From assembly GCA_963784905.1 (NCBI GenBank), contig CAWATP010000009.1, forward strand, positions 54,279 through 118,278: a stretch of 64,000 bases of DNA, read 5' to 3'. Under the pieces are notes generated by a model. The model was not told the DNA's origin. It saw only the letters and a program-made list of their open reading frames with translations, and searched no databases. Position numbers and translations under genes: made by a program. Origin of the DNA: an uncultured Actinomycetota bacterium (GTDB taxonomy: Bacteria > Actinomycetota > Actinomycetes > S36-B12 > UBA5976). Below, one piece after another: positions 15,829-32,596 of the stretch (within the stretch, counting starts at the first letter, position 1; each line of letters opens with the position of its first letter).

Positions 15829-15863
15829 TCGGCAAGCCTGACGTGTTACCGCGGGGTCGCCAA
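15829..15863 (-). promoter_or_regulatory. Putative leaderless fabD promoter overlapping the att core
   Basis: Minus strand TTGGCG-17 nt-CAGGCT-6 nt-ATG; no Shine-Dalgarno sequence. Confidence 0.5.
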
Positions 15864-16133
15864 ATTGAACACGCCATCACCTTCAGGCGACGGCTCGACT
15901 CCATCCATCAACCAGGCCTCGTCAACGCCACAGGCGCGAGCAATAGCGCGCAAGAAGGGCACCTTGCGAGCGCGTGGCCAGTTGCGATTTTCGTATCCGG
16001 CCAACGTGGTACGAGAGATGCCAACGAGCTCGGCGACCTCTCGCTGTTCAAGTCCGGCGACAGTGCGCGCCAACACGATGCGTTCAGCAACCGTGAAGCG
16101 GGGAACCTCGCCTGTCAGTGCGTGAATACTCAT
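15846..16133 (-). CDS. XRE-family immunity repressor, prophage (truncated) form, 95 aa
   Basis: HTH LEQREVAELVGISRTTLAGYE...GVDEAWL; reads through the att core and stops at a TAA completed by host sequence. Confidence 0.9.
   Translation of the reverse strand: MSIHALTGEVPRFTVAERIVLARTVAGLEQREVAELVGISRTTLAGYENRNWPRARKVPFLRAIARACGVDEAWLMDGVEPSPEGDGVFNLATPR
15848..15865 (+). repeat. Left attachment site core ACCGCGGGGTCGCCAAAT
   Basis: Identical to 32579-32596. Confidence 0.95.
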
Positions 16134-16228
16134 GTGTTCAAGTTTGACCCTTAGAGCACAATTGCGCAACACGCCGAATGTGAACGTGGTTCTTGCATTT
16201 GTGCGGACTCTGGTCCTATCTTGAACCT
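16134..16228. promoter_or_regulatory. Divergent leaderless promoters for repressor and cro
   Basis: Plus strand TTGCAT-18-TATCTT-6-ATG; minus strand TTGCGC-17-CAAACT-7-ATG. Confidence 0.65.
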
Positions 16229-16411
16229 ATGTCCAATTCTTTGATGACGACCAGAGAAGCCTCCCAGGCACTTGGCGTCACCGTGAAGACCATCAACTCC
16301 CTGGCACGGGCGGGGCGCATCAAGACGGCCCACAAGGGCGCCGGGCGAACGTCCTCTCGCATGTTCCGCATTGAAGACATTGAGGACTTCAAGCGCGAGC
16401 GCGCTGCATGA
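16229..16411 (+). CDS. Cro/Xis-like small HTH protein (MerR/HTH_17 type)
   Basis: LMTTREASQALGVTVKTINSLARAGRI; divergent from the repressor; ends in -RAA. Confidence 0.85.
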   Translation: MSNSLMTTREASQALGVTVKTINSLARAGRIKTAHKGAGRTSSRMFRIEDIEDFKRERAA

Positions 16412-16473
16412 CCTCCGTCGGCCGCGTGCATTCCCCCGTCGCGTGGCCGGCGGACTTCCCTACACAAATGAAA

Positions 16474-16512
16474 GCCCGGCGCGGTTCCCTAACCAAGAAC
16501 CCCGCGCCGGGC
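16474..16512. terminator. GC-rich hairpin downstream of cro
   Basis: GCCCGGCGCGG ... CCGCGCCGGGC inverted repeat preceded by AAA. Confidence 0.45.
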
Positions 16513-16532
16513 ACCTACTGAAAGAAGGCGCA

Positions 16533-16664
16533 ATGACACTAGCAATCATCGTTGGACTTCTCGCCCTGGTGGCGTGGTCCTATATCCGCCGCGAACGCCG
16601 CCGCGCTACTGAGCGCCGCTCGCAGCTCGTCGCCCGCCTCAACATCGAGGAGGGTGCGCGATGA
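16533..16664 (+). CDS. Small viral membrane protein
   Basis: AAGAAGG RBS; single TM plus basic tail; ATGA coupling to the next gene. Confidence 0.7.
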   Translation: MTLAIIVGLLALVAWSYIRRERRRATERRSQLVARLNIEEGAR

Positions 16665-16924
16665 GCCAACGAGAGTCCGAGCTGCGCGACGCAGCCACCG
16701 CGGCCAAGTCCCGGATTAGCCAACTCCTGACCGATGCGCAGGGCAACCCTCCGCACCCGAGCCACCTCGACTACATCCTCATTCAAATTGCACTCTTCGG
16801 CGCGGAGTGCGCACCCAGGGCCAGCACCGCGGAAGCTACTTGCAAAGCCATCGTCGCCGAGGTCGATAGGGCCCTTGCACTGCGAGCAGACCAGGCAAGT
16901 GCAAGCGTGGTGAGGTTGGCATGA
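16661..16924 (+). CDS. Viral hypothetical protein
   Basis: GGAGG RBS; ATGA overlaps at both ends. Confidence 0.7.
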   Translation: MSQRESELRDAATAAKSRISQLLTDAQGNPPHPSHLDYILIQIALFGAECAPRASTAEATCKAIVAEVDRALALRADQASASVVRLA

Positions 16925-17142
16925 TTCCCCGTCACTGTGCTCTGTGTGGTTTGGTCGCCAACCGCAACACCAAGCCCTTCATCATCTTCATGACGCTGCG
17001 CGTCCTCGATGTCGATTTCATCGGCGCCTGCCGCGTACACATGGACCCGACGAACTCCCTAATTGGCAGAGAGCCAGACGTTGAGCTCGTGAAGACGTTC
17101 TTCGCCGCCGACTTCCGCGAGCCCTCCGTGGAGGTGCGCTGA
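16921..17142 (+). CDS. Viral hypothetical protein (CxxC)
   Basis: Coupled start/stop overlaps; GAGG RBS. Confidence 0.65.
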   Translation: MIPRHCALCGLVANRNTKPFIIFMTLRVLDVDFIGACRVHMDPTNSLIGREPDVELVKTFFAADFREPSVEVR

Positions 17143-17360
17143 TGACGTGGCTTGCATTGTTGGCTGGCCTGCTCTTCGGTGGGCTCACCGGCTGGGTGTG
17201 CGGGATGCTCACCATCTTCAAAGCCTTCGGGCACATCATCGACCTGGGCAAACGCCTCCTGGTCGCACAAGCTGCCGCCGGGGCGCCTTCCGGCGGCACG
17301 GTGGGGCTCGGGCGTCGGGAAGCGTCTGAGCCTCACCACGGCACCAAGGTCGGTGTCTGA
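17142..17360 (+). CDS. Small viral membrane protein
   Basis: GGAGG RBS; N-terminal TM; TGATG coupling. Confidence 0.7.
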   Translation: MTWLALLAGLLFGGLTGWVCGMLTIFKAFGHIIDLGKRLLVAQAAAGAPSGGTVGLGRREASEPHHGTKVGV

Positions 17361-17590
17361 TGGCACTTTCAGGACTCAAGCTCGGGCAGCGCGTTGCGTG
17401 GAACGGGCAGGCGTTCACGGTGTGGGCGAAGGCACCTGCCGCACGACAGTGGTGGCTGTATCAGCACCCGCAAGAGGGGGGGGGGCTCGCCCGGTTTCAT
17501 CTGTGCGAAACAGGGCGACCTGTTCCCGCCCACGCCTGCCGGTCTCGCCGCGTCCATCGAACGCTTGAACCCAGGGGCGTGAGCGTATGA
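17360..17590 (+). CDS. Viral hypothetical protein containing a G10 tract
   Basis: TGATG coupling; homopolymer at 17476-17485 may shift the C-terminal frame. Confidence 0.6.
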   Translation: MALSGLKLGQRVAWNGQAFTVWAKAPAARQWWLYQHPQEGGGLARFHLCETGRPVPAHACRSRRVHRTLEPRGVSV

Positions 17591-17886
17591 CCACGATCGA
17601 CTTCGAGCCTAAGCCCAACGAGACCGGGTACGACTACGCCAACCGGCTCATGATCATGACGGTGGGTTGCTTGGATTGCGAGCATGTGTGGAGCGGCAAG
17701 GGCGCTGACGTGGTGGCCATGTTCAACACGCACCAGACGCAACCGGGCAAGACCACGCACCGGCAGTGGCGGGAAGCGAACTGTCTTTGCGGTTGGCACT
17801 CAGGCAGCGAATACCACGAGCACGCCGTCGTGGTGCTGGCCACCATCGACCATCATTTGGCGATGCATGCGGGGTTGCTGCCATGA
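17587..17886 (+). CDS. Viral Cys/His-rich (putative Zn-binding) protein
   Basis: CLDC, H..H and CLCGW motifs; coupled ORF. Confidence 0.65.
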   Translation: MTTIDFEPKPNETGYDYANRLMIMTVGCLDCEHVWSGKGADVVAMFNTHQTQPGKTTHRQWREANCLCGWHSGSEYHEHAVVVLATIDHHLAMHAGLLP

Positions 17887-18278
17887 GCACACAACTCACC
17901 ATCGAGGCCATCGACCAGGTGATCGAGGCCGGCCACGCACACGCCAACAGCGAGTGGCGCCGTGTCGCCCTGGAGTCGGTGCGCCTGCTGTCTAACACCC
18001 GCGAATTCTTCACCACTGACGAAGTGTGGGAACTGTTGGAGCCGACCGGCTTCACGACCTCGGACCCGCGCGCCCTGGGTGGTGTGATGCGTGCAGCTCG
18101 CGCCGCCGGCTACATCAAGCCGACGCTGGACATGAAGAAGAGCCAACGCCCCGGATGCCACTACCGGCCCATCACCATCTGGATATCACTCCGCGCATCC
18201 GTGCTCCCCCGTTCCGCCAACCGCGGGCACATGGTCGTCAATGTTGACAACATCCCCCGAGAGGCGTACGTCGCATGA
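17883..18278 (+). CDS. Viral putative winged-helix DNA-binding protein
   Basis: FTTDEVWELL...DPRALGGVMRAARAAGYIK...S.RP..H.RP...W pattern that I recall from phage proteins. Confidence 0.6.
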   Translation: MSTQLTIEAIDQVIEAGHAHANSEWRRVALESVRLLSNTREFFTTDEVWELLEPTGFTTSDPRALGGVMRAARAAGYIKPTLDMKKSQRPGCHYRPITIWISLRASVLPRSANRGHMVVNVDNIPREAYVA

Positions 18279-18487
18279 AACTCGTCATCAACGTGAAGCC
18301 TGAGCGCGGCGCTTGGCACTGGGACGTCATCGACCTCGACCAGAAGCGGGCCTACTCCTACGGCATGAATCCGCACTTCGGTGTTGCTTCCACTCGTTGG
18401 GGCGCGATATGGGGCGCGCGCCGTCGCGCCCGTTGGATGAAGCGCGTGGCAGACACCACAGTGGAACGCATCGAGGTGAAGCCATGA
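18275..18487 (+). CDS. Viral hypothetical protein
   Basis: ATGA coupling; GAGG RBS. Confidence 0.65.
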   Translation: MKLVINVKPERGAWHWDVIDLDQKRAYSYGMNPHFGVASTRWGAIWGARRRARWMKRVADTTVERIEVKP

Positions 18488-18594
18488 AGACCGTGCTTGA
18501 TGCCCGTGACGCGAAGGTGTGCCACTGCCCTGGCTGCGGCAATTGGCTCTACGACGGCGCGGCCTGCACTGTCTGCCCAGGGGGTGCGAAGTGA
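18484..18594 (+). CDS. Tiny zinc-ribbon protein (36 aa)
   Basis: CPGC...CTVC; GAGGTG RBS; ATGA and GTGA coupling. Confidence 0.55.
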   Translation: MKTVLDARDAKVCHCPGCGNWLYDGAACTVCPGGAK

Positions 18595-18866
18595 CGCCCG
18601 GCGAGGGACTCGGCCATTGTGCGCCGTGCGTCGAGCGCACTGTGCAGCCCTATCGCAAGTCGGTGAAGCCCAAGGATTGCGGTTACTGCCAGACCTACCA
18701 GGCGGGCATCGTTGAGGGCTGGATGCGCGCCTCTGATGCGGTCACCGAAATCGACTTCGGGCGCGCCGAAACGCTCGGGGTGCAACGGTTCCGCGCGGTG
18801 CTGCGTAACGCACTCCTGGCCAACGCAAAGCTCCACGTTGCCCTGGTCGTGGCCGATGATCGTTGA
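18591..18866 (+). CDS. Viral zinc-finger protein
   Basis: CAPC...CGYC; GTGA coupling. Confidence 0.55.
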   Translation: MTPGEGLGHCAPCVERTVQPYRKSVKPKDCGYCQTYQAGIVEGWMRASDAVTEIDFGRAETLGVQRFRAVLRNALLANAKLHVALVVADDR

Positions 18867-19143
18867 ACGCTGTGCCCGTCACGCTTTCAAGCCCTCCCGT
18901 CACGCCTGCAGCGAATGCCGGGACGCTTTTGAGGCGGCGCGTGACGCGTTGATCGAGCGCAACTATCGTGAGCTCGACGCGCGGTACGAACTGCACCGCC
19001 AACGCACGCTTGCAACGGCCATGTGCAACCTTTGTGACGACAACGCACGCCGGCCCGATGGCCGCCTGTGCCACCATGACCCCGACCATGATGAACGAGT
19101 CGCCCGCGGTGTTGCCGCGTGCCGAGAGGCGTTGGCGTCGTGA
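18856..19143 (+). CDS. Zn-finger protein resembling the C-terminal domain of actinophage replication proteins
   Basis: C..H...CSEC and CNLCDDN...CHHD motifs. Confidence 0.55.
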   Translation: MIVERCARHAFKPSRHACSECRDAFEAARDALIERNYRELDARYELHRQRTLATAMCNLCDDNARRPDGRLCHHDPDHDERVARGVAACREALAS

Positions 19144-19499
19144 GAACACGGAACTTCGTGAAACTCCCGATCATGATTTTCGAAGACACCCGCGCCATCA
19201 GGGCCGGTGAGCAAGCCATGCATCTGTGGGTGTCGATGTGGTCGCGCAGCTTCACGATGGAATCTGACGGATGTTGGGAAGACGTCCAGGTGAGTCGGCT
19301 CAACGTGCCCAATTGGGACAAGCGGCTCGATGCGCTCATCGAGCAAAAGTTGGTGGCGCAGGTGAGTGACGGCGTCTTCCAGCTCATTGATTGGCTGCTG
19401 TACCACGAGTCGGTGAAGGAACGCGGTGCGCGCCTGGAGAAGGAGCGTGAGCGCAAGCGCCTCGCAGCATTGCAAAAGGAGAAGAAACACAGCGCCTAA
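19140..19499 (+). CDS. Putative replication initiator (phage replisome-organiser N-terminal-like wHTH)
   Basis: FVKL...A..LW...DG...L...L...DG.F...DW..Y.S followed by a RERKR helix. Confidence 0.6.
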   Translation: MRTRNFVKLPIMIFEDTRAIRAGEQAMHLWVSMWSRSFTMESDGCWEDVQVSRLNVPNWDKRLDALIEQKLVAQVSDGVFQLIDWLLYHESVKERGARLEKERERKRLAALQKEKKHSA

Positions 19500-19640
19500 C
19501 GCTTTCCGCGCGGAAAGCGCGCGGAAGCCCCCCGGAATCCTGACGGAGTCCGGGGGGCTTCCTTTTGGAAGACGTTCACCCTTCCTCGCGGAAGCCGAGC
19601 GGATGCCGCGCGCAGATAGAGAGATAGAGAGAGAGAAATG
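19500..19640. other. Candidate replication origin
   Basis: 20-bp perfect palindrome 19500-19519; (C/T)GGA cores at 19511, 19522, 19533, 19544, 19566, 19589 and 19600; 14-bp-stem hairpin 19523-19562; purine run 19614-19638. Confidence 0.55.
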
Positions 19641-19809
19641 CTCCGCGCCGCGCCCCCGCGTGGCCGCGGTGAATCGCGGCGCGTCGCAGCGGGCGCGATT
19701 CAGCGCGGGCGCGTCGTGGCGTGCGTCTGCGAGGTGAATTTGATGGGGTGAAAGAGGTTCGGCCCCTGGAGGCTGGAGCTTTCCAGGGGCCGAAGGTGTG
19801 CGGGTTCGC

Positions 19810-20058
19810 CTACTCGGGGTCGAAGCCCAGGGCGTGCACGGCGTCGGCCTGCCGCTCGATGGTCTTGCGCACGATGATGCGATGCACCAACGACGGGTGC
19901 AGATCGGTGGCCCTGGCGATGTAGCGCATGCCCAGGCCTTCGGCGTCCGCGTCAGCAATAGCCTCGTCACGCACCGCCAGGGCGGCATCGACGTGGGCGT
20001 GTGCCTCACGAGCTGCGGCAGCGAGCCGGGCGAGCCGTTCACGCATGAAATCCGCCAC
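19810..20058 (-). CDS. Small HTH transcriptional regulator
   Basis: RDEAIADADAEGLGMRYIARATDLHPSLVHRII; GAAGGGA RBS before GTG. Confidence 0.75.
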   Translation of the reverse strand: MADFMRERLARLAAAAREAHAHVDAALAVRDEAIADADAEGLGMRYIARATDLHPSLVHRIIVRKTIERQADAVHALGFDPE

Positions 20059-20179
20059 GGAAATCCCTTCGTTGTGAGGAAACCCTAGCAGAAAGATGAC
20101 ACTTTCCTCATGTTGTGGGGTATGGTGTTCACATCCGCAATCCGCGCGGTGTTCACCACAGTCAACAGGGAGACGGGTT

Positions 20180-20629
20180 ATGGGCCTCGCAGTTCGCGGC
20201 ACCTGCCCCAAGTGCCAACGGGTCTATGACACCGAGGCACCAGCCCGCCGCTCGACTCGCCGTTTCACCTGCGCCACCGACGGCTGTGACGGCGACGTCC
20301 TGGCCCGCCGCATCAAAGGCAACGACCCCGCACCGGCGCCCCTGGCTGCTGAACCCAACCCCGCCGGCCGACGACGAAAGAAGGCACTCCGTGTCGATGG
20401 ATACGCCCGACAGCCCCGACACTCTGAGCCCGGACCAAGCCCCGAGCTTCCTGGTGGCGTTGCCGAACCTGGCACCCAAACGCCCCCACCGCCCCCTGGA
20501 CGAGACCCCGAACCTGCCCCCGTCGTCGAACCCCGACAGCCCCACGGTGAGCCCGCCGCCGAGCGACCTCGACGACGAGCCGAGCGAGTACGACGAGCCG
20601 GCGTCACCCCGTACGACGACCTCTACTAG
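20180..20629 (+). CDS. Zn-ribbon protein with Pro/Arg-rich tail
   Basis: GGGAG RBS; CPKC...CATDGC; overlaps the next ORF. Confidence 0.55.
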   Translation: MGLAVRGTCPKCQRVYDTEAPARRSTRRFTCATDGCDGDVLARRIKGNDPAPAPLAAEPNPAGRRRKKALRVDGYARQPRHSEPGPSPELPGGVAEPGTQTPPPPPGRDPEPAPVVEPRQPHGEPAAERPRRRAERVRRAGVTPYDDLY

Positions 20630-20948
20630 GCGCAAGCCCGGCGGTGACCCGCGTGAGGTTGCCATGGTCCTGGGCGGCCTCCTGGTGCTGCTCACCGGCA
20701 CCCTGGCGTTGCTCGCCAACCAACGCGGCCGCACCTTCCGGCAACCCACCATTCGGCAACGTGATGACATCGCCCAACCGTTGGCACGGATCGCGGTGCG
20801 GCATCTGCCGCTTGATGCCCTGGGCCCCGACCTGGCTGACGCCACCATGGCCGCCGTCGCCCTCCACGCCTACGTCATGGCCGGGCCCCTCACCCCACCG
20901 ATCAGCGCCGACAGCCCTGCCGGCGACTTCAACAACCACCAGGAGTAA
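20391..20948 (+). CDS. Viral membrane protein with acidic Pro-rich N-terminus (possible assembly factor)
   Basis: AAGAAGG RBS; two hydrophobic segments; ends just before the RBS of the next gene. Confidence 0.65.
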   Translation: MSMDTPDSPDTLSPDQAPSFLVALPNLAPKRPHRPLDETPNLPPSSNPDSPTVSPPPSDLDDEPSEYDEPASPRTTTSTRRKPGGDPREVAMVLGGLLVLLTGTLALLANQRGRTFRQPTIRQRDDIAQPLARIAVRHLPLDALGPDLADATMAAVALHAYVMAGPLTPPISADSPAGDFNNHQE

Positions 20949-20952
20949 ACCC

Positions 20953-21342
20953 ATGCTCGACAAGCTCCGCGCCCTGTTCGATGGCAAGACCACCACGCGC
21001 CTCGTGCTCGCCGGAGTTGCCATCGTCTGGGGCATTCAGACCATCACCGACACCATCCGCGACATGGAAGCCCACGCCGACGAGCTCGCCGAACTCATCG
21101 CCCTGCGTGAGCTGACCCTGGCCTCGCTCGACGTCGAGCTGCGAAACGTTGACGGCGTGCAGTTCACGTTCTCCGGTATCAGTGACGACACCCACCCGGC
21201 AGGTCAGGGCCGCACCGTGCCGCCGTCGCCATTCATCAACCACGACACCCATGACATCGACGTCACGGACAACGACGAGTCGGTGGCCGAGTTCAATGCC
21301 ACCCGAGGCAACACCGCCGGCGCAAACGGGCTTGTGCCATGA
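20953..21342 (+). CDS. Viral membrane-anchored coiled-coil protein
   Basis: AGGAG RBS; TM segment then an acidic helix. Confidence 0.7.
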   Translation: MLDKLRALFDGKTTTRLVLAGVAIVWGIQTITDTIRDMEAHADELAELIALRELTLASLDVELRNVDGVQFTFSGISDDTHPAGQGRTVPPSPFINHDTHDIDVTDNDESVAEFNATRGNTAGANGLVP

Positions 21343-21821
21343 CCGGCACACCCAACCCGTCGCGGGTCATCTTTCGCGGCTTCAAGTTCGACCGCCGCAC
21401 TGTCGCCATGATCGAGTGGGCCGAACGTAAAGCCGGCTTCAAGTTCGTCATCACCCAAGGCTCCTACTCGACCGGCGTGAGGGTGTCCGGTGGCACCCAC
21501 AACGGTGGTGGCGCCGCCGACTTCTCCGTGCGCAACCTCTCCCGCGCCAGCATCGACAAGATGGTGCATGCGCTGCGTGACGCCGGTTTCGCCGCCTGGC
21601 ACCGGCGCGAAATCCCTGGCACCTGGCCCGAGCACTGTCACGCCATCGCCATCGGCTGCCCCGACCTGGCTACTGCCGCTCGAGCCCAGGTCTTGGACTT
21701 CGAGCGCGGGCATGACGGGCTCAAGCAATCACGACCCGACAACACCTACCGGCCCAAGCCCGCGGTCATCTTCGACATGAAGACCTGCAAGCCCATTCAC
21801 CGACTGACGTTTAAGGACTGA
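21339..21821 (+). CDS. Endolysin, Zn-peptidase (M15-like) catalytic domain
   Basis: ITQGSY...SGGTHNGGGAAD...AAWHR...EHCH (Hx6D and HxH ligands) as in actinophage lysin A domains. Confidence 0.8.
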   Translation: MTGTPNPSRVIFRGFKFDRRTVAMIEWAERKAGFKFVITQGSYSTGVRVSGGTHNGGGAADFSVRNLSRASIDKMVHALRDAGFAAWHRREIPGTWPEHCHAIAIGCPDLATAARAQVLDFERGHDGLKQSRPDNTYRPKPAVIFDMKTCKPIHRLTFKD

Positions 21822-21822
21822 T

Positions 21823-22047
21823 ATGAACCGCACCCAACTCGCGGCCGCGGCCAAGAGCTACGGCAAGACCCTCATCATCGCCTGCGCCCTCCTGGCCAAG
21901 GCCGGCGTCACCGACTGGCCCACCTACGCCCTGGCCGTGCTACTCGCCGTGCTCGCGCCTGCCGGCCGCTACCTCGACCCCAACGACCCCACCGTTGGCC
22001 GCGCGCGTGCCGCCGTCACCGAAGCCCAGGCCGCAACCACGCCATGA
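21823..22047 (+). CDS. Putative holin
   Basis: 74 aa, two TMs, RYLDPNDP tail; directly after the endolysin. Confidence 0.7.
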   Translation: MNRTQLAAAAKSYGKTLIIACALLAKAGVTDWPTYALAVLLAVLAPAGRYLDPNDPTVGRARAAVTEAQAATTP

Positions 22048-26242: not shown

Positions 26243-26733
26243 TACCTCACCCCGAACGGCGTCATGTCGGTGAAGGCCTGGATACCGACGGATGTCCCCG
26301 CGGTGCCATAGACGGTGAAGGCGTGCGAACCGATAGGGATGGCCAGCCAAGAGTTGTTGGGGATGATCTGCACGCCGTTGCCCTGGGTGGGTGCGACGCC
26401 GCTGGGCTGGGTGCCGGTTTGCACGGTCATGGTGGCGCCGGTGGTGTTGGTGATGACCACGGCCCCGACCTGCGTGTGGTACGAGCACACGAGCACACCG
26501 TCGGCGGGGATGACGCGGGCAACGACTTCGAGCACATTGTTGCTCAGTTGCGAGCGATCGCGTGCGGCCATGCCCGACATGACCGTGGAGAGACGCTTGA
26601 GCTCGTCCAGGGTGGCTTCGGCGACGGCGCGAGCGAGCTCACGGTCGGTGAGTGGGCGAGAGGGCAGGTCGCCGGTGGTGGGGCCTTCGTTGCGCGCAGC
26701 GATTTGACTGTTGCCGGTGTTCATGAGTCCCAT
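26242..26733 (-). CDS. Virion protein with N-terminal helix and beta-rich C-terminus (candidate vertex protein)
   Basis: AGGA RBS; position in the structural operon. Confidence 0.55.
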   Translation of the reverse strand: MGLMNTGNSQIAARNEGPTTGDLPSRPLTDRELARAVAEATLDELKRLSTVMSGMAARDRSQLSNNVLEVVARVIPADGVLVCSYHTQVGAVVITNTTGATMTVQTGTQPSGVAPTQGNGVQIIPNNSWLAIPIGSHAFTVYGTAGTSVGIQAFTDMTPFGVR

Positions 26734-26741
26734 GCTGGTTC

Positions 26742-26918
26742 CTATCCGAGTCCGTTGGCTTTGAGGTAGTAGGCGACGGCGGAGACGCCGACACCGATGA
26801 CGGCGAGCTCGACGCGGCGCAGGCGCCGTTCGTGGTCGGTGAAGGTGATGAAGAAGGTGTCGACCTTCGTGGCGATGGTGATGAGGATGTCGTGGTCACT
26901 GCTGAATTCCGGTGGCAT
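26742..26918 (-). CDS. Small coiled-coil plus TM protein (XhlA/holin-like)
   Basis: TGATG coupling; KVD...DHERRLRRVE followed by a TM. Confidence 0.6.
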   Translation of the reverse strand: MPPEFSSDHDILITIATKVDTFFITFTDHERRLRRVELAVIGVGVSAVAYYLKANGLG

Positions 26919-27676
26919 CACTTCACCGCTCCGAGGACGCTGCGCGGTGTGACACCGGAGGACTTGAGGAGGCCGCCGACGACGAGGACGACGCCGGCGA
27001 TGGCGAAGAGTGCGAACATGCCGTACTTCTTCAACGTCTCGCCCAGGGCGCCCATGGAGTCGCGTACCCAGTTGAACATGCCGCCCGGTCCCCAGTCGGG
27101 GAGGTCGGTGGTCGTCTTGCCGGCCTGCGCCGCGTCGGTGCTGCCGGTAGCCGTGGTGGCGGTGGCCATGCCGGAGTTGTCGCCCAGGTTGGAGGGAACC
27201 TGCACGGTGGCCGATGAACTGGACGGGATGAGCCCGCCGAGGGCGCTCTTGCCTGCGTTCATGCGTTTGGTCACCTGGCTTTCGCTTTGGTCTTTGGGGC
27301 GCTCGTATTTGGTGAGCACGAGGCGGGTGGCGGTGGTGTTGTCGGTGGTGGCTTTGATGCGCGCCCACAGCGTTGGGGAGGCTGGCGAGGCGGGGTTGGC
27401 GCGGGTGGCCGGTGACTGCATCTCAGCGACGATGTAGCGCTCCTGGGTGGCCAACGTGTTGGGGTCCAGGTTGTGGGACTTGGCCCACTTCTTGAGGTTG
27501 TCCCAGCGTTCGTTGTGCCATTGCGCGATGCCGTGGGAGGTGCCGCCGTCGCCCAGGGCGTCGGGTCGCACGTTGGATTCGGAGACCAGGTTGGCGACAA
27601 TGCCGAACGCACCCGCAACCGACATGCCGGCGTTGCGCAGGAAGTCGTAGACGGTGCGGGCGTTGGCGTTGGCCAT
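26918..27676 (-). CDS. Virion-associated lysozyme (Phage_lysozyme2-like) with C-terminal membrane anchor
   Basis: GIVANLVSES...GIAQW..RW...KYERP; low-complexity linker; C-terminal TM. Confidence 0.82.
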   Translation of the reverse strand: MANANARTVYDFLRNAGMSVAGAFGIVANLVSESNVRPDALGDGGTSHGIAQWHNERWDNLKKWAKSHNLDPNTLATQERYIVAEMQSPATRANPASPASPTLWARIKATTDNTTATRLVLTKYERPKDQSESQVTKRMNAGKSALGGLIPSSSSATVQVPSNLGDNSGMATATTATGSTDAAQAGKTTTDLPDWGPGGMFNWVRDSMGALGETLKKYGMFALFAIAGVVLVVGGLLKSSGVTPRSVLGAVK

Positions 27677-27684
27677 GGCTCAGC

Positions 27685-28188
27685 TCACAGGTTCCGCATG
27701 AGGAAGCCGGCCTTGGCAGGCGAGAGCGGCACACCGGCTTTGAGGGCGAGGGCGGTGTCGTTGGCAATGCTCGCGGCCGACGGCTGCGCCGCCGCATTCG
27801 CAAGCTGTTGCATGACGTAGGACTGGGGCTTGGCTGCCGGTGTCGGTGCGACGCCAGACGGCGGGACCGCGGTGGCGGTGGTGGGTGCTGCAGCGCCGCC
27901 CTGGGCGATGCCGGCGAGGATCTGCGAAATGCTCGACAGTTGCGACGTGTAGGCGTCCAGGGCGGTGGTGTCGGCCGCGGTGCCGCCAGCTGCGCCGGCG
28001 CCGCCACTGCTGCCGGCATAGAGCCCGCCAAGGCTGCCGTTGCTGCCCGTGGTGTCGGTGGCAGTGCTCACGGAGCCGCCGCTCGAGCCCTTGCGGACGA
28101 ACACGACCAGCCCGATGACCGCACCCACGGCGGCCGCGGCCTGGGCGCGCTTGTCGCGCATGAGACCCGACAGGCTCTTGGTGTTCAT
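27685..28188 (-). CDS. Membrane-anchored low-complexity virion protein
   Basis: ATGA coupling; N-terminal TM then G/S/A/T-rich region. Confidence 0.7.
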   Translation of the reverse strand: MNTKSLSGLMRDKRAQAAAAVGAVIGLVVFVRKGSSGGSVSTATDTTGSNGSLGGLYAGSSGGAGAAGGTAADTTALDAYTSQLSSISQILAGIAQGGAAAPTTATAVPPSGVAPTPAAKPQSYVMQQLANAAAQPSAASIANDTALALKAGVPLSPAKAGFLMRNL

Positions 28189-28607
28189 CGGCCACCGGCC
28201 GTCTTGAGCTGAGACATGATCGAGGGCAGCGCATTGCTGCCGGTCGACGGGTATGCCGCCTGCGCGCCGGCGCCGCCTTGCATACCGACGTTGCGCTTCG
28301 ACGGGGTGGCGGTCGGCTGCGCCTGCACGCGCCAATCCTGCTGCGGGGCGGTGCGCCCGGTGAAGCGGCCCACCACGCCGAAGCCAATGTTGTTGGTCAT
28401 GTTGCCGTTGTTGTTGCTCATCGGCGAGGCGGTGAGGGTGGCGTAGGCCAGGGCGCGCATCATGCGCGTGCCGATGGGTTCGGCGTCACGTACGACGACC
28501 TGTGCCAGGCGGGTGCGAGGGGCGATGACGGGGCCGCGGACAGGGCCGGCGGGGCTGTTGCGGCGCGCCTTCCCGGCCTTGCCTGGTTGTCCGAAAATGA
28601 GGCCCAT
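28185..28607 (-). CDS. Extended G/P/N/Q-rich basic virion protein
   Basis: 140 aa, no TM, coupled within the structural operon. Confidence 0.6.
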   Translation of the reverse strand: MGLIFGQPGKAGKARRNSPAGPVRGPVIAPRTRLAQVVVRDAEPIGTRMMRALAYATLTASPMSNNNGNMTNNIGFGVVGRFTGRTAPQQDWRVQAQPTATPSKRNVGMQGGAGAQAAYPSTGSNALPSIMSQLKTAGGR

Positions 28608-28608
28608 G

Positions 28609-28758
28609 TCAGTTGGCCTTGTTGCGGCCCTGGAGGGCGGTGGTGAGGTCGACGGCGCCCTTGGAGGTGGCGCTGATGGCCTTGCCGAAGCCGGTGGCGT
28701 TGGCCAGGACGAGATAGGCGCCGATGAGGATGGCCGCGAGCTTGATGCCGTTGCGCAT
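28609..28758 (-). CDS. Small membrane protein resembling tectiviral DNA-delivery proteins (49 aa)
   Basis: Read by hand: MRNGIKLAAILIGAYLVLANATGFGKAISATSKGAVDLTTALQGRNKAN; AAGGGAG RBS. Confidence 0.65.
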   Translation of the reverse strand: MRNGIKLAAILIGAYLVLANATGFGKAISATSKGAVDLTTALQGRNKAN

Positions 28759-28781
28759 GTGGGTTGCTCCCTTGAGTGGTG

Positions 28782-29030
28782 TTACCAGGACGATCCGCCG
28801 CCGCCACCGCTGCCGTTGGAGGCGCCGGGTACGGGGTTGATGTAGGTGGTGCCGCTGCCGGCGGTGGAGCTGCTGCTGCGGTCGGGGATGAGGGGGATGG
28901 TGGGGTCACCGATGCGCCGAATCTTGTCGCCCACCACGCCCAGTGCGTCAGAGACTCCGCTGGAGTAGTTCACGACCGCGTAGAGGGCCACGAGGGTGAA
29001 CCACCAACCGAAGACGGTGCGCCCGTTCAT
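28782..29030 (-). CDS. Small membrane protein
   Basis: TM plus amphipathic helix, DPTIPLIP, Gly/Ser tail; ATGA coupling. Confidence 0.65.
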   Translation of the reverse strand: MNGRTVFGWWFTLVALYAVVNYSSGVSDALGVVGDKIRRIGDPTIPLIPDRSSSSTAGSGTTYINPVPGASNGSGGGGGSSW

Positions 29031-29143
29031 GCGGCGGCCGCCGGTCGCTGCAACAGGTTCAGCCGGTAGAGCGCGTCACCTTTGAAGACTTGTGCCAGGA
29101 CCAGGAGGCCGATGGCGCTGATGAGGAGTCCGTCACTGTTCAC
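29027..29143 (-). CDS. Tiny membrane protein (38 aa)
   Basis: GTGA-coupled; MNSDGLLISAIGLLVLAQVFKGDALYRLNLLQRPAAAA. Confidence 0.6.
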   Translation of the reverse strand: MNSDGLLISAIGLLVLAQVFKGDALYRLNLLQRPAAAA

Positions 29144-29544
29144 AGGGGTTGCCCGTCTGCTCCGAGGTTGAGGAACTTGGCTTTGAGCATGGTGCGCACC
29201 GCGGTGGCACCGCCGGGTGGGCCGCCTTTGGTGACGGGCTTGATGGCCGGTAGGACCACCCACACCCAGGCGAAGAAGCCCAGGACGATGGCCGATGCCT
29301 GGGTGCCGCCGCCCTTCCAACGCATCGACGCATCGGCGCTGGAAGCAGTTGCGCGGGCAGGAGGAGTCGGGTCCGGCGCCGACTCCTCCTGCCCGCTGCG
29401 TTCGTGGTCTTCGTTGACGGCCAGGAGGCGGTCACGTTCCGCGAGGGAATCGTCATCGCCCTTGGCCAGCAGCTCATCAGCGCGCGCCTGGTTGTCCGCA
29501 TACCTGTCGGCTGCGGTCTTCCGGGGTGTGCGCTGACGGGCCAC
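29140..29544 (-). CDS. Membrane protein with charged N-terminus
   Basis: One TM (AIVLGFFAWVWVVLP) then LKAKFLN. Confidence 0.65.
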   Translation of the reverse strand: MARQRTPRKTAADRYADNQARADELLAKGDDDSLAERDRLLAVNEDHERSGQEESAPDPTPPARATASSADASMRWKGGGTQASAIVLGFFAWVWVVLPAIKPVTKGGPPGGATAVRTMLKAKFLNLGADGQPL

Positions 29545-29547
29545 GGG

Positions 29548-29802
29548 TTACGCGCAGACGGTGAGGTCGAGCGTGGTGGCCGTTGCTTCGGGCAGCCAGG
29601 CCACGAGGTCGGTGCCACTGTCGTCCTTGCCGAGGTAGACGCCACGGCGGTCGTGCTCGTCGGACACCAGGGCGCCGACGGTGAGGGTTGCGGCCACGGG
29701 GGCCTCCTGTTCGATGGGGGTTTCAGTTGCGGGGACGGGGATGTCGGCCGCGGGGATGTCCGCGGGGATGTCCGCGGGGATGTCGGTGGGCTGTTCGCTC
29801 AC
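29548..29802 (-). CDS. Acidic small protein with DIPA repeats
   Basis: AAGGAG RBS; three exact 12-bp repeats. Confidence 0.6.
   Translation of the reverse strand: MSEQPTDIPADIPADIPAADIPVPATETPIEQEAPVAATLTVGALVSDEHDRRGVYLGKDDSGTDLVAWLPEATATTLDLTVCA
29749..29784 (+). repeat. Tandem repeat (CGCGGGGATGTC) x3
   Basis: Read directly; a partial fourth copy at 29736-29745. Confidence 0.9.
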
Positions 29803-29806
29803 GGTG

Positions 29807-30043
29807 TCACTCCTTGCCGAGGTGGATGGAAGCCTTGGTCTTGCCGACGCGGACGCCTCCGGCCCCGCCGATCAGTCCGGCCGTCACCGCGAGGATGAGG
29901 CCGAACCACAGCATGGGGTTGTCCGGGTGCAGGAGCCCCGCGAACCCGTCAGGGCTCGCGGTGGCTCCCGCCTCCAGAGAATGCGGCGCCACGAAACGGG
30001 GCTCGACTGGCTTGAGGCCGGTGAGTCGGAACGTGTCATACAT
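29807..30043 (-). CDS. Small membrane protein downstream of the capsid gene
   Basis: Single TM (PMLWFGLILAVTAGLIG) followed by a beta-hairpin-like tail. Confidence 0.7.
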   Translation of the reverse strand: MYDTFRLTGLKPVEPRFVAPHSLEAGATASPDGFAGLLHPDNPMLWFGLILAVTAGLIGGAGGVRVGKTKASIHLGKE

Positions 30044-30055
30044 TCCAGGCTCCGA

Positions 30056-31237
30056 TCAGGCGCCGACGGGTGCGGCGAAGATCGTCTCGGAGATGATGCG
30101 CGCGATGCCGTTGGTGGGGCTGGACGGCAGGTTCACCACGAGGCGAAGGTCGGTGGTGGAACCCTGGTCAACACTGTCGCGGAAGGCCCAGGCGGTGGCG
30201 AAGTCGAAGCATGCAGCGCCCCAGACTCGGCCGATGTCTTCCACGTAGTCCATCTCGTTGATGGCGCGGAGCATGGCCGCGTGCTGCACCTGCTCCGGCG
30301 TATCCGAGCCACCGAAGCGCCAACCCACCAAACCGAAGTTGGTGTCGTTGACGGCCAACGGGGCACCGGGGGCGGTGCCGGTGTAGACCTGCCAGATGAC
30401 CCGCATCCACTGGCGGCCGACGCCGGTGCCGGTCATGAGGATCTCGTTGTCGCCCTGCGCGAGGCCCGACTGGCGGGTGCCGATGAGGGAGTGGAACGAG
30501 CTCATGTCCGGGACCACGTAGCGGCCGTTGACCTGCGGGATGGAGAAGACCTCGCCGAGGATCTGGTAGCTCAACGTCGGCGTGAGGGTGCCGGCGGCTG
30601 CCAGGTTGGCGTGGGTTTCCCAGTCGATGTCGATGGTGAGCTGCGTGGCGTTGGTCTGCGCGTAGATGGCGCCCACCAGTTCACGGTCATCGAAGGAGAC
30701 GGGGATCTCAAACCACAGGTCCACGGTGTAGGTGGCGGCGGTGAGTGCGGTCACTGCCGGGCCCATGGAGTTGGCGGCCGAGACCGTGCCCCAGTCCTCG
30801 GAGGAGAGCGACGCGGTGCCGTTCTGTGCACCGTAGGCGCCGACAGCCTGGTTGGCGGCGCGCTGCACACCGTTGGAGTTCAGCGCGGGGTTGCCAATCA
30901 CGTTGACGAGCTTCAGTTGGAGGCCCGAGAGCGCCACGAGGTTCGCTTGGCCGTTGGCGGCGAGCTTGACGCCCTTGATGAGGTTGTAGGGCCACTCGGA
31001 AGTGGTCGCTGCACCCGCGGTGGCGGCAACAGTGCCGGTGACGCGGATCCAAATCTTGTTGATGATGCCCGTCTGGCGAAGGGCGATGGAATCGGAGGTA
31101 CCGAAACCATTGATGGCGGTGCGCGACTTCATCATGAAGCGCATGCGGCGCGTGAACTCCATGAACGAGTCACGGTCAACGTTTACTCCGGGTGTCTCGA
31201 TGCCCTGGAGAACGAGAGTGGGCTGGCCTTGGGCCAT
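30056..31237 (-). CDS. Double jelly-roll major capsid protein (PRD1 P3-like)
   Basis: 393 aa; ordered motifs GIINKIWIRVTGTV, PYNLIKGV, SGLQLKLVN, IPVSFDDRELVGAIYAQ and IPQVNGRYVVPDMS parallel my recollection of PRD1 P3. Confidence 0.85.
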   Translation of the reverse strand: MAQGQPTLVLQGIETPGVNVDRDSFMEFTRRMRFMMKSRTAINGFGTSDSIALRQTGIINKIWIRVTGTVAATAGAATTSEWPYNLIKGVKLAANGQANLVALSGLQLKLVNVIGNPALNSNGVQRAANQAVGAYGAQNGTASLSSEDWGTVSAANSMGPAVTALTAATYTVDLWFEIPVSFDDRELVGAIYAQTNATQLTIDIDWETHANLAAAGTLTPTLSYQILGEVFSIPQVNGRYVVPDMSSFHSLIGTRQSGLAQGDNEILMTGTGVGRQWMRVIWQVYTGTAPGAPLAVNDTNFGLVGWRFGGSDTPEQVQHAAMLRAINEMDYVEDIGRVWGAACFDFATAWAFRDSVDQGSTTDLRLVVNLPSSPTNGIARIISETIFAAPVGA

Positions 31238-31398
31238 TAGTTGGCTCCCTTGTGGGTGTAGGCGACGAAGCGGGCAAAGCCGAGGTTCGGCAACTTGTCC
31301 GCAAGGACTTCGAGCAAGAAGTTGCTCACGATGGAAACGCCCGCAACGGCGAGCCAGAAGGCCGCCTTGCGTCCGGTCTTACGGGGCTCTGCGGCCAT
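31237..31398 (-). CDS. Small membrane protein (53 aa)
   Basis: Read by hand: MAAEPRKTGRKAAFWLAVAGVSIVSNFLLEVLADKLPNLGFARFVAYTHKGAN; TAATG coupling to the capsid gene. Confidence 0.7.
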   Translation of the reverse strand: MAAEPRKTGRKAAFWLAVAGVSIVSNFLLEVLADKLPNLGFARFVAYTHKGAN

Positions 31399-31404
31399 GA
31401 ACGG

Positions 31405-31491
31405 TCAGGCCTTCTTCATCTCGTACGTCTTCACGCCGAGGACAACGGCGAGAGCGATAGCCGCGGTAATGGCGACCTGCTTTGCACGCAT
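31405..31491 (-). CDS. Micro membrane protein (28 aa), first gene of the structural operon
   Basis: AAGGAG RBS; MRAKQVAITAAIALAVVLGVKTYEMKKA. Confidence 0.65.
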   Translation of the reverse strand: MRAKQVAITAAIALAVVLGVKTYEMKKA

Positions 31492-31604
31492 GTGCGCTCC
31501 TTGGTTCGTGGACGCCCGGCGGGTGTCCGTGCCCCATGGGTAGCGCGGGGGGTGGGTGTTCACGGAAGTAGACAGGCCACAAGGCCCAGGTGTTGGACAC
31601 GCAA

Positions 31605-31635
31605 CAACGCCCCCACCGAAACGGTGGAGGCGTTG
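31605..31635 (-). terminator. Hairpin after the integrase
   Basis: CAACGCC-C-CCACCG/CGGTGG-A-GGCGTTG stem with a G-U pair on the minus strand. Confidence 0.55.
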
Positions 31636-31652
31636 GTAATGCTGGGGTTTTG

Positions 31653-32444
31653 CTAGGCGGCGATCAGATTCACGGCGGCACTGAGCTCGTCGTCATAGAT
31701 GGCCACGTAACGCTGTGTGGTGTCTGCCGACGTGTGCCCGAGCAGCGTTTGCACGACGCGCAGGTCGCGGGTGGTCGAGTATGCGCGGGTTGCAAACCGA
31801 TGCCGCAGGGAGTGCGCCGTGAAGGGCTTGGGTAGAACCTGCTTGAGTCGCTGGGCAATCCACTCTGTGCTCGCTGGCTGGTCCGGCCATCGGGGTGAGG
31901 GGAACGCCCAGCCCACGATGCCGTCGAGCTCGGGTGCGAGTATCGGGTGGATGGGGACGCGGCGGGTCTTGCCGCCCTTGCCGGTGACGATCAAGCCGAG
32001 GGGCGTGATGTTGTCGCTGTGGAGTCCGGCGATTTCGGCGATGCGCAACCCGGCGAACGCGCCCAGGAGGAGTGCGAGCCTGGTCTTTCCTTGGGCGCGG
32101 CCCAGCGCAATGTGTAGCGAGTTTTCGTCAATGGGCCGCGGTACTCCGTCTGGCACTTTGAATCCGGGAATGTCGAGCGTGGGGTCGTTGTCTACGAGAC
32201 CGCGTCGCCCGGCCCAGCGGTAGAAGCATCGCAGTGAGACGTGGAGTTGGTGCAAGGTTTCGGCGCTGTATTGGTTGCGTGCTCGGAACAGTTCGAGCAC
32301 ATCGTCTTCGGTCGCAGTGGCGAGCTCTACTCGAACTGCGAGGGTTCGGATATGGCATCGGCGCGCGAGCAGGGTCTTTCGTGCGCGGCCGAGGCTTTCC
32401 ATGTAGTCAATCCATCGGTCGATGAGTTCGTCATTGCTGTTCAC
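31653..32444 (-). CDS. int: Tyrosine integrase lacking an arm-binding domain
   Basis: GLR, GKGGK, HSLRHR, LLGH and TQRY catalytic motifs; only 263 aa; ends in -LIAA. Confidence 0.93.
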   Translation of the reverse strand: MNSNDELIDRWIDYMESLGRARKTLLARRCHIRTLAVRVELATATEDDVLELFRARNQYSAETLHQLHVSLRCFYRWAGRRGLVDNDPTLDIPGFKVPDGVPRPIDENSLHIALGRAQGKTRLALLLGAFAGLRIAEIAGLHSDNITPLGLIVTGKGGKTRRVPIHPILAPELDGIVGWAFPSPRWPDQPASTEWIAQRLKQVLPKPFTAHSLRHRFATRAYSTTRDLRVVQTLLGHTSADTTQRYVAIYDDELSAAVNLIAA

Positions 32445-32516
32445 GTTGCCCCCTGGGGAAGTCGGGTTGGTTTACCTCCGGGAGTGTTGCCGACGAGCTG
32501 AAGGGCCGGTGGGCGG

Positions 32517-32579
32517 TTATGCCGAGAGCGAATATTCGTGGCGGGGGGTCCGAAAGGGAAGTATCACCGCTGCCGGAGA
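32517..32579 (-). other. Orphaned 3' end of the repressor gene encoding an ssrA-like tail
   Basis: In frame with LATPR of the core: SPAAVILPFRTPRHEYSLSA*. Confidence 0.8.
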
Positions 32580-32596
32580 CCGCGGGGTCGCCAAAT
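32579..32596 (+). repeat. Right attachment site core ACCGCGGGGTCGCCAAAT
   Basis: Identical to 15848-15865. Confidence 0.95.

Follow-up and report, generated by a model that had tools for sequence, protein, structure and literature searches.

A probable tailless PRD1/Bam35-like provirus in an actinobacterial chromosome, and its relatives

The window analysed here is a 64-kb stretch of DNA from an uncultured actinobacterium (contig CAWATP010000009.1), and all coordinates are positions in that window unless a related contig is named. Positions 15848-32596 hold an element that is very probably the integrated form of a temperate, tailless virus of an actinobacterium, of the PRD1/Bam35-like kind with a double jelly-roll (DJR) capsid protein. 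Its free genome would be a circle of about 16.7 kb, which a Xer-like integrase would recombine with the chromosome at an 18-bp core. The late block of genes would build an icosahedral capsid with an inner membrane, and the packaging ATPase would fill it.

Insertion and virion genes

The initial annotation had proposed a unit of 16,731 bp with 18-bp direct repeats at both ends, and a repeat search bore this out. The sequence ACCGCGGGGTCGCCAAAT occurs as an exact direct repeat, both copies on the + strand, and there is no third copy in the window even when up to two mismatches are allowed. The chance expectation for an 18-mer, estimated from shuffled sequences, is 0.01 matches, and none of 100 shuffles gave two or more. 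The element spans 16,749 bp including both repeats and 16,731 bp including one. Its ends and the genes on which the assignment mainly depends are as follows.

[quoted passage not shown]
32579-32596, + strand: attR core, the second copy, 134 bp from the start of the integrase gene
30056-31237, - strand: predicted major capsid protein of the PRD1 P3/Bam35 type, 393 residues, from sequence profiles
31237-31563, - strand: two small proteins (53 and 52 residues) encoded immediately upstream of the capsid gene; a hydrophobic helix in each
22044-22808, + strand: predicted genome-packaging ATPase, 254 residues, Walker A motif GQKGTGKS, from profile and BLAST matches

The left flank of the element consists of an Acyl_transf_1 gene, whose product we take to be FabD-like, and a KAS III gene (Pfam assignments), while on the right there is a gene for a 462-residue multi-pass membrane protein, which belongs to no Pfam family, followed by a pyruvate dehydrogenase E1 component. 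The left flank was located in 17 of the 31 genomes searched, including all four from the same genus. In each of these four, a single copy of the core with one or two mismatches directly follows the left flank, and in three of them the next 11-14 bases or so resemble the right flank of the window. A homologue of the right-flank membrane protein (42% identity) lies about 60-90 bp from the acyltransferase gene in two of the four (L036 and L037), and was not found in the approximately 1.5 kb examined in the other two. Because the site is empty in these same-genus relatives, the 16.7 kb is an insertion into an intergenic site, as had been claimed, and the accompanying claim of an intact-looking integrase agrees with the family matches given below. 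The guanine plus cytosine (GC) content of the element is 64.9%, against 61.2% and 60.2% in the flanks. The only tRNA gene in the window, for tRNA-Val (TAC) at 37549-37625, is 5 kb from the element and is not its att site, unlike the tRNA sites used by relatives.

The 393-residue protein had been suggested to be the capsid protein, and its assignment to the PRD1/Bam35 type is supported by sequence profiles. It matches the Pfam family PF09018 (Phage_Capsid_P3_N; 1.7e-5, 24.7 bits) and phrog_5863 (2.5e-18), and in tblastn, hits with E values from 2e-6 to 6e-5 fall in capsid genes from phiG2 (covering 83% of the query), Bam35c, pGIL01, pGIL02 and Sato. A profile built from 54 members of the capsid family matches PRD1 P3 at 2.3e-6. 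Profile A3, made from 81 capsid sequences that were all retrieved by a single query at E < 1e-7, matches PRD1 P3 at E = 4.3e-11, with profile positions 33-321 aligned to residues 38-343 of 394, which covers both barrels; for the STIV coat protein the match is to the first barrel (1.5e-12). These are the best matches of the capsid among solved structures. An hhalign comparison of the family profile with the capsid protein of phiG2 gave 99.3% probability and E = 8e-21, and PM2-type capsid proteins were absent from all of the search results.

The 254-residue protein, noted earlier as an ATPase of FtsK/HerA type, is supported as an enzyme of the STIV B204/Bam35 gp14 type by its matches to phrog_2666 (2.7e-14), to the STIV2 B204 packaging NTPase (4kfr, E = 1.6e-4) and, in BLASTP, to Bam35 gp14 (3e-7). 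The match to Toil gp12 is weak (E = 0.01), and a tblastn search of phage records finds phiG2 alone (E = 7e-3). An internal lipid membrane is hinted at only indirectly, by the 13 predicted genes that have a hydrophobic helix in a crude hydropathy test, together with a membrane-anchored lysozyme.

A six-frame scan was made of 150 of the 154 stop-to-stop open reading frames (ORFs) of at least 72 residues, the other four running into the flanks. The only Pfam matches were to Phage_lysozyme2, Phage_integrase, helix-turn-helix (HTH) families and Phage_Capsid_P3_N. PHROGs added the packaging ATPase and weak matches to replication-initiator families, and NCBIfam added models for a Xer-type recombinase and an excisionase family. 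No polymerase, portal, HK97-type capsid or tail family was found in these 150 ORFs with the three collections. No terminase was among them either; the only PHROG labels of that sort, 'terminase large subunit' and 'tape measure', come from the families that match the ATPase and the lysozyme domain, respectively. These are the same gene classes that the first inspection of the DNA had listed as missing. No terminal protein, rolling-circle replication Rep or helicase family was found in the ORFs of the element.

Relatives and the lysogeny module

A search of 5.8 billion clustered proteins gave 98 relatives (protein clusters) of the capsid protein, the most distant at 36% identity; contigs of 16-19 kb encode many of them, and a contig of 147 kb encodes one. 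An exhaustive HMMER search gave 246 representatives at E <= 1e-3, with 33 at E <= 1e-30. Scanning viral and genome contigs with the single capsid sequence gave no close relatives, while alignment-based scans succeeded: of the candidate stretches picked out by pattern, 3 of 32 held up in IMG/VR, as did 30 of 82 in contigs from a set with one genome per species. Of 400 other genomes sampled evenly from the host's class, 3 have the capsid gene. It had been suspected that related DJR proviruses might already exist in genome surveys, and relatives are indeed present in public metagenome-assembled genomes (MAGs) and in IMG/VR. By record title, the loci are nearly all from Actinomycetota (Micromonosporaceae, Nocardioides, Streptomyces, Kitasatospora, Cellulomonas, Actinotalea, Acidimicrobiia and others), with two binned elsewhere. 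Loci L005/L063 and L014, in MAGs labelled Gammaproteobacteria and Methylomirabilota, are on element-sized contigs of 17-20 kb, and are probably mis-binned free viral contigs rather than signs of a wider host range.

Gene content was compared across 33 loci, many of which are broken by contig ends. The capsid gene is found in all 33 and the ATPase in 32; the 53-residue product is kept beside the capsid gene in 19, and two other small products of the late block, of 78 and 49 residues, are kept in 19 and 13, respectively. A homologous integrase is present in 17.

Some of the relatives appear to be circular. Four contigs have exact direct overlaps at their ends and no inverted repeats. The overlaps are 127 bp in a contig of 18,519 bp, 125 bp in one of 16,362 bp, 141 bp in an integrase-encoding one of 16,927 bp and 95 bp in one of 16,593 bp, which belongs to the assembly of a Streptomyces isolate. 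IMG/VR classes its two contigs as bearing direct terminal repeats. We read the overlaps as the result of circular assembly, noting that a terminally redundant linear genome would look alike. The Streptomyces contig (L062, from Streptomyces sp. NPDC056144) is 16,593 bp in its entirety, and tblastn finds no integrase of the window type in it; this could be a circle, episomal or excised, carried by a cultured strain.

Other relatives are integrated. Locus L031 is bounded by a 35-40-bp repeat of the 3' end of a tRNA-Lys gene, with the copies 15,903 bp apart. The cultured strain Nocardioides soli DSM 105498 has an exact 39-bp repeat of tRNA-Asn, 15,917 bp apart, and a Cellulomonas MAG has a 39-nt repeat of 85% identity about 16.0 kb apart. 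Of seven integrated relatives searched for direct repeats, L031 alone had an att pair in the families listed, and the two other pairs were located by way of tRNA 3' ends in the whole records. For locus L022, in Actinotalea lenta, there was no att pair within the DNA examined. The same locus has arrays of a 30-nt repeat at 15497-16066 and 6286-6465 of its own sequence (14 and 5 listed copies), inside and beside the element, which may encode a repeat-rich fibre or spike protein. The circular, integrating life style first proposed from the window alone is consistent with the four related contigs that assemble as circles and the three related proviruses flanked by tRNA sequence.

A junction of the expected kind was found in a public sequencing run. 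A contig of 5,865 bp, about 92% identical to the element, joins 29919-31651 to 16393-18984, with about 1,484 bp between the two segments compared to the 1,472 bp predicted by the attP-joined order. This contig is from a relative in another organism, and not from the element itself.

Two sets of loci hold more than one copy. L027 and L030 are related proviruses lying side by side on one contig of an uncultured Actinomycetota MAG, with 15,869 bp between their capsid genes. Around the capsid gene they share 99.6% identity over 6.5 kb, and only 88-91% over the remaining 8.5 kb or so. Two variants may have lysogenised one site in tandem, or the two may have recombined. L011, L029 and L033, from a long-read Nocardioides MAG, are three copies of 97-98.7% identity, each ending a megabase-sized contig; the element is multi-copy in this MAG and breaks its assembly.

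In L004, L031, Toil, phiG2 and Bam35 the ATPase and capsid genes are collinear, whereas the window and roughly one relative in three have them on opposite strands. The late or the early block has therefore been inverted within the family.

A quick capsid tree was made from 84 rows. The clade containing the window capsid (14 rows, SH-aLRT support 99) is sister to a clade of 55 rows, and both are apart from the rows for Bam35, phiG2 and Toil. Two remote capsid relatives from these clades, P0139 and P0148, gave no tblastn match in 50,697 phage records, and on this basis the sister clades have no cultured member among those records.

The genes at the two ends of the element make up its lysogeny module.

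15846-16172, - strand: XRE-family repressor, 108 residues in the prophage form (95 from the ATG at 16133); HTH_31, phrog_2328
16193-16411, + strand: DNA-binding protein of the HTH_17/excisionase family in the Cro/Xis position, divergent from the repressor gene; likely start at 16244
31653-32444, - strand: Xer-like tyrosine integrase, 263 residues; PF00589 (2.4e-16), TIGR02224 (2e-30)
32517-32578, - strand: would-be additional 20 C-terminal residues of the repressor in the circular form, from an in-silico reading across attP

A repressor/cro pair had been proposed here. The repressor stands, with matches to Pfam HTH_31 (5e-10) and phrog_2328 (3e-19), while the supposed Cro is a protein of the HTH_17/excisionase family (Pfam HTH_17, 1.6e-9; NCBIfam TIGR01764 'excise', 2.7e-5). 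The integrase carries the residues R..K..HxxR..H..Y, as judged by eye, and has the C-terminus -IAA. The core provides the last codons of the repressor gene, and the stop codon is made of the first core base and two host bases. When the ends are joined in silico, the repressor becomes 128 residues long instead of 108, and one strand carries rep, the core and int in succession, the HTH_17 gene being divergent from rep. The same layout of rep, attP and int is found in L031, where reverse-complementing the tRNA end gives the core and the repressor is 12 residues longer in the joined form. In the circular contig L004, rep is at 19-414 and the divergent HTH gene at 472-720 of that contig, and the integrase match at 15971-16582 is directly downstream of rep across the joined ends.

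Both proteins have homologues in tailed phages. In tblastn the repressor matches 96 phage records (59 Gordonia, 14 Mycobacterium and 11 Arthrobacter among them; best identity 42.7%, E = 2e-9), and the integrase matches 421, mostly from Mycobacterium and Gordonia phages, including a Wizardvirus integrase at 34.4% identity (E = 8e-28). The two match the same Gordonia Wizardvirus phages. In Jambalaya they correspond to genes 48 (immunity repressor) and 47 (tyrosine integrase), which are neighbours on the same strand, a divergent HTH gene coming next (genes 47-49); the C-termini are -AAA in the repressor and -SAA in the integrase. The earlier suggestion of a control module of tailed actinophage type is strongly supported by these adjacent matches.

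Cassettes of this kind are found in integration-dependent immunity systems. Pope 2017 (PMC5559632), in the part used here, describes Wizard and Twister6 as having such systems, with attP of these Gordonia phages inside the repressor gene and the far C-terminal end of its product bearing an ssrA-like tag. For the defining system, that of BPs, the corresponding part of Villanueva 2015 (PMC4557955) gives a prophage repressor that is 33 residues shorter, stable and active. The window element resembles the cassettes of Mycobacterium clusters G, I, N and P (for example BPs) and of Gordonia cluster DC (Wizard, Twister6 and Jambalaya) in its order of int, rep and divergent HTH gene, in having attP in the 3' end of rep, in its shorter prophage repressor and in its AA-ending integrase. 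It differs in that its carrier would be a tailless DJR virus and not a member of the Caudoviricetes, in that the truncation is of 20 residues against 33 in BPs, and in the non-canonical tail of the viral form of its repressor. Three features that mark these systems are present: attP is inside the repressor frame, rep is directly upstream of int with a divergent Cro-like gene, and the repressor and integrase are homologous to those of known cassettes. For a further mark, an ssrA-like degradation tag ending both the virus-encoded repressor and the integrase, the picture is mixed. As judged from the alignments and the gene order, the rep/int cassette is homologous to integration-dependent immunity cassettes in both sequence and layout.

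By analogy the cassette may also work like them, and this is the reading towards which we lean. Because attP is inside the 3' end of rep and beside int, integration would swap out the last 20 residues of the repressor and part rep from int. The shorter prophage repressor would be the stable, active form, as its homology with the cassettes of tailed Gordonia and Mycobacterium phages suggests, while the virus-encoded 128-residue repressor and the integrase ending in -IAA would be short-lived. It is possible, though in our view rather doubtful, that the virus is real and has an ordinary repressor/antirepressor switch, with the position of attP at the repressor end having no regulatory meaning. 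Only the last residues of the repressor change, and the tails of the virus-form repressors, -LSA in the window and -TAS in L031, are not the canonical AA tag of ssrA-like type. Of the 17 integrases in relatives, 11 do not have an AA end, and six do. An ordinary switch does not account so readily for the recurrence of the layout (rep, attP within rep, int, and a divergent HTH gene) in the window, L031 and L004, for the homology of both proteins to described integration-dependent immunity cassettes, or for the -AAA and -SAA ends in Jambalaya.

Known systems and alternative explanations

The Betatectivirus members Bam35, pGIL01 and Sato, and the Lysinibacillus phage phiG2, share with the element a homologous capsid protein and packaging ATPase and a small genome of 14-17 kb. 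In Bam35-type tectiviruses many small membrane-type genes follow the capsid gene, as they do here, and a lysin gene is followed by genes of vertex size; the order of ATPase, small gene and capsid in these viruses is kept in many of the relatives. In Toil, phiG2 and Bam35 a small gene is likewise positioned upstream of the capsid gene. As set out in the part of Yutin 2018 drawn on here (PMC5894146), the Bam35-type viruses are linear, with inverted terminal repeats, a terminal protein and a protein-primed family B DNA polymerase (PolB), and are linear plasmids without an integrase. The window element, by contrast, is bounded by att repeats, encodes an integrase and lacks PolB; its relatives form circles on assembly, and its capsid is in a separate clade.

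The Rhodococcus phage Toil (Epsilontectivirus), the Streptomyces phages WheeHeim and Forthebois and the Microbacterium tectiviruses are like the element in the phylum of their hosts, a genome of about 17 kb, an entry lysozyme, a temperate life style and the order ATPase, small gene, capsid. Their genomes differ in being linear and encoding PolB, and none was found to carry an integrase; in the passages cited, papers on the cultured actinobacterial tectiviruses report none (PMC11768872, PMC6950372). Toil-like Streptomyces proviruses that encode Cas1 are also chromosomally integrated DJR-capsid elements of Actinobacteria, according to the relevant section of Yutin 2018 (PMC5894146). They are described there as using Cas1 (casposon-type) integration and as being among PolB-encoding elements, whereas the window element has a tyrosine integrase and no PolB. 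The PM2-like and other Vinavirales proviruses (Corticoviridae and Asemoviridae, from Proteobacteria and Bacteroidota) and the archaeal STIV, TKV4 and MVV types are circular or integrating DJR elements, often with a tyrosine integrase and without PolB, according to Yutin 2018 (PMC5894146) and an ICTV summary. These belong to other capsid subgroups and have other hosts.

Members of the Tectiviridae are recognised by their capsid protein, an FtsK/HerA-superfamily packaging ATPase, a protein-primed PolB, a linear genome with inverted terminal repeats and a lipid membrane inside the capsid (PMC11768872). The element has a capsid protein of the right type, by sequence only, and a packaging ATPase of that superfamily. 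It has no protein-primed PolB among the 150 ORFs, and PF03175 was found in none of five related records. In place of inverted terminal repeats it has direct att repeats, and four related contigs have direct overlaps. We have not filed it in the Tectiviridae because it lacks both the PolB and the linear inverted-repeat genome; it fits the wider PRD1-like class.

The family may form a lineage of family rank within the Tectiliviricetes that we have not found described, a proposal on which we regard the balance as even. Such a lineage would combine a PRD1/Bam35-type capsid with a circle of about 16-18 kb, integrated by a tyrosine recombinase, in place of the linear protein-primed genome, and would carry an integration-dependent immunity cassette exchanged with tailed actinophages across two realms. 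No published description was found of a circular, PolB-less actinobacterial lineage with a P3-type capsid and a tyrosine integrase, although Additional files 5 and 7 of Yutin 2018, which were outside the search, may list such contigs. Nor was a description of an integration-dependent immunity cassette in a tailless virus found in the literature. There are precedents for the general pattern. DJR viruses that integrate are known from PM2-like, Vibrio and archaeal STIV-like lineages. The part of Yutin 2018 used here (PMC5894146) reports DJR proviruses with integrases and PolB-less DJR elements in other lineages, with a polymerase only in a minority. A 2025 paper on Vibrio (PMC12715192) reports, in the part cited, the transfer of lysogeny elements between filamentous and DJR phages, so that module exchange of this kind is not new as a concept. 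What is already known is thus that relatives are in public data and that the general pattern has precedents; what stands out is the change in genome type, the cross-realm cassette and the cultured carriers.

Cultured tectiviruses are all linear, PolB-dependent and, when temperate, plasmid-like. The proposed lineage would keep the particle genes and change the genome type, the mode of replication and the form of lysogeny, and would show free recombination of virion modules with replication and lysogeny modules in the PRD1-adenovirus lineage. Integration-dependent immunity has so far been described in tailed actinophages, and a cassette of this type in a tailless virus would be a concrete case of module exchange between realms. 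Members of the family are present in culture-collection strains, in which particles, membrane, host range and the switch are directly testable. If the lineage is real, the cultured carriers (Nocardioides soli DSM 105498, Actinotalea lenta, Kitasatospora and Streptomyces) would make a tractable model. Prophage surveys of Actinobacteria that are centred on tailed phages may miss such elements.

Several results weigh against the interpretation of the window element as a functional virus of this type. The window capsid scores, on its own, 0.6 bits under the curated Pfam cut-off (24.7 against 25.3), and its family profile gives only 0.65% probability in hhalign with the Toil coat protein, which is no detectable match; its double jelly-roll fold is predicted from profile matches. 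No read or contig bridging either the empty site or the attP of this exact element was found in four sequencing runs, and no RNA run containing the element was listed. The best DNA run containing the element (share 0.33) has only short contigs, and most other joints listed in the runs have short sides and low likeness, and were disregarded. The candidate replication genes have only weak PHROG matches, and the 119-residue protein has no tblastn match in phages. The best coding frame shifts four or five times between 18488 and 20400, which makes the gene calls at 18.5-20.4 kb uncertain and may reflect either overlapping small genes or a degraded early gene.

The frame changes, together with the lack of a securely identified replication protein and of any excision product in the contigs examined, could indicate a cryptic or decaying provirus, truly inserted and unable to excise, replicate or form particles. 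We consider this unlikely. The capsid protein, ATPase, integrase, lysozyme and repressor are full length when compared with relatives, the att repeats are still identical, the late genes are tightly coupled and free of stops, and the relative of about 92% identity is in the attP-joined order in another sample.

It is highly improbable that a free viral contig was wrongly joined to a chromosomal contig of the MAG at a short repeat during assembly or binning. The MAG is in 38 contigs with 76% completeness, free circular relatives exist, and the GC content of the element is 3-4 points above that of its flanks, all of which an artefact of this type might explain. It would not explain why both junctions fall exactly at the 18-bp core, which is single-copy at the same intergenic site in all four same-genus genomes, or why the integrase and repressor are at opposite ends, as expected from recombination at an attP between them. 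In addition, an 18-bp repeat is below the usual assembly k-mers, and independent relatives are integrated in a similar way.

Actinomycete integrative and conjugative elements (AICEs) are 9-24 kb in size and carry a Tra translocase of FtsK/SpoIIIE type, a RepSA-type initiator and Spd spread proteins. A pSAM2-like AICE or integrative plasmid, in which the P-loop ATPase would be a conjugative DNA translocase and there would be no virion, is superficially similar in size, in its int and xis-like genes, in its P-loop ATPase and in its small membrane proteins, but it is effectively refuted by the homology of the capsid protein to PRD1 P3 and the STIV coat protein, kept next to the ATPase across the family, by the match of the ATPase to viral packaging enzymes, and by the absence of FtsK/SpoIIIE, RepSA, relaxase, Spd and Nudix families from the 150 ORFs (Pfam, NCBIfam), and we give it the lowest probability of all. 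A satellite was also considered, and was rejected.

Gene layout and remaining genes

The element has 216 ORFs of at least 40 residues, many of them spurious because of the high GC content, and genes were therefore called from a frame plot of GC at third codon positions and a codon-usage model trained on confident genes. This gave 39 genes which, with the repressor (low-scoring, and supported by Pfam), makes about 40. They form two convergent blocks, on the + strand at 16193-23555 and on the - strand at 23552-32444, that meet stop-to-stop, and neighbouring genes often overlap by 1-4 bases, with many start/stop overlaps. The initial annotation had described two convergent blocks with some 45 ORFs; the blocks stand, and the count is somewhat lower by codon usage. 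A scan for promoters and terminators was uninformative, with no promoter-like sites and nine terminator-like sites against 9.9 expected.

In the late block, the direction of reading is from the two small hydrophobic proteins to the capsid, about nine small genes, the lysozyme, and then proteins of 163, 468, 114 and 191 residues. The genes downstream of the capsid gene are listed below.

27685-30043, - strand: nine small late genes (38-167 residues) from the gene call, five with a hydrophobic helix by crude hydropathy
26918-27676, - strand: membrane-anchored lysozyme/transglycosylase; Phage_lysozyme2, 2e-28, residues 5-144
26242-26733, - strand: 163-residue protein, a candidate for penton or vertex protein, its gene coming after that of the lysin as in Bam35
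24836-26242, - strand: 468-residue protein, candidate spike or receptor-binding protein from its size and position
23552-24476, - strand: Gly/Ser/Thr-rich proteins of 191 and 114 residues at the end of the block, candidate vertex or spike proteins; gene call and frame plot

The nine small genes are candidates for virion-membrane and assembly proteins. The lysozyme, noted at the outset as a membrane-anchored muramidase, has the expected arrangement of an N-terminal catalytic domain and a hydrophobic helix near the C-terminus. The four proteins that follow it occupy the place of the penton and spike genes 27-29 of Bam35, and by analogy of position they may have the same roles. The 163-residue protein has tblastn matches in L002, L004, L006, L032 and L062. 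The only family match of the 468-residue protein is to phrog_5313 (7e-25), whose function is unassigned, and the 191- and 114-residue proteins have no family match in Pfam.

The remaining genes of the + strand block are as follows.

16408-18487, + strand: early block of small ORFs; gene call
16533-16664 and 17142-17360, + strand: two ORFs with a hydrophobic helix; gene call
17587-17886, + strand: Cys/His-rich protein of 99 residues; gene call
17883-18278, + strand: protein of 131 residues; gene call
18667-19140 and 19140-19499, + strand: candidate replication genes, two ORFs in different frames; weak PHROG matches
20397-21342, + strand: proteins of 183 residues (Pro-rich N-terminus) and 129 residues, one hydrophobic helix each; gene call
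21339-21821, + strand: protein of 160 residues with an H-x6-D ... H-x-H pattern (by eye), upstream of the ATPase gene
22805-23555, + strand: last small ORFs of the block, including one of 65 residues and a Cys-rich one of 74; gene call

The candidate replication genes were matched to initiator and replisome-organiser families, all weakly: phrog_3171 (8e-6), phrog_2447 (3e-6) and phrog_3926 (1.6e-5). It is suggested that a small initiator-like viral DNA-binding protein would recruit the host machinery, which would then copy the circle without a protein-primed PolB. Replication by the host machinery is the weakest part of the model. The initial annotation had also proposed replication and lysis modules of tailed actinophage type, and this was not demonstrated, the evidence being these weak PHROG matches and one early gene common to Streptomyces siphophages. 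This is the gene for the 131-residue protein, homologues of which, with no function assigned, occur in 15 records of tailed Streptomyces phages at 29-36% identity and with E values as low as 7e-6. There is a possible gene for an 82-residue protein on the opposite strand at 19810-20058.

The first part of 20397-21342 has tblastn matches in several related loci. The pattern in the 160-residue protein may indicate a cell-wall peptidase of LAS type (M15-like), which Pfam does not confirm, there being no match for 21339-21821 at 1e-5. The Cys-rich proteins at 17587-17886 (also His-rich) and 23331-23555 have no family match, and both look zinc-ribbon-like.

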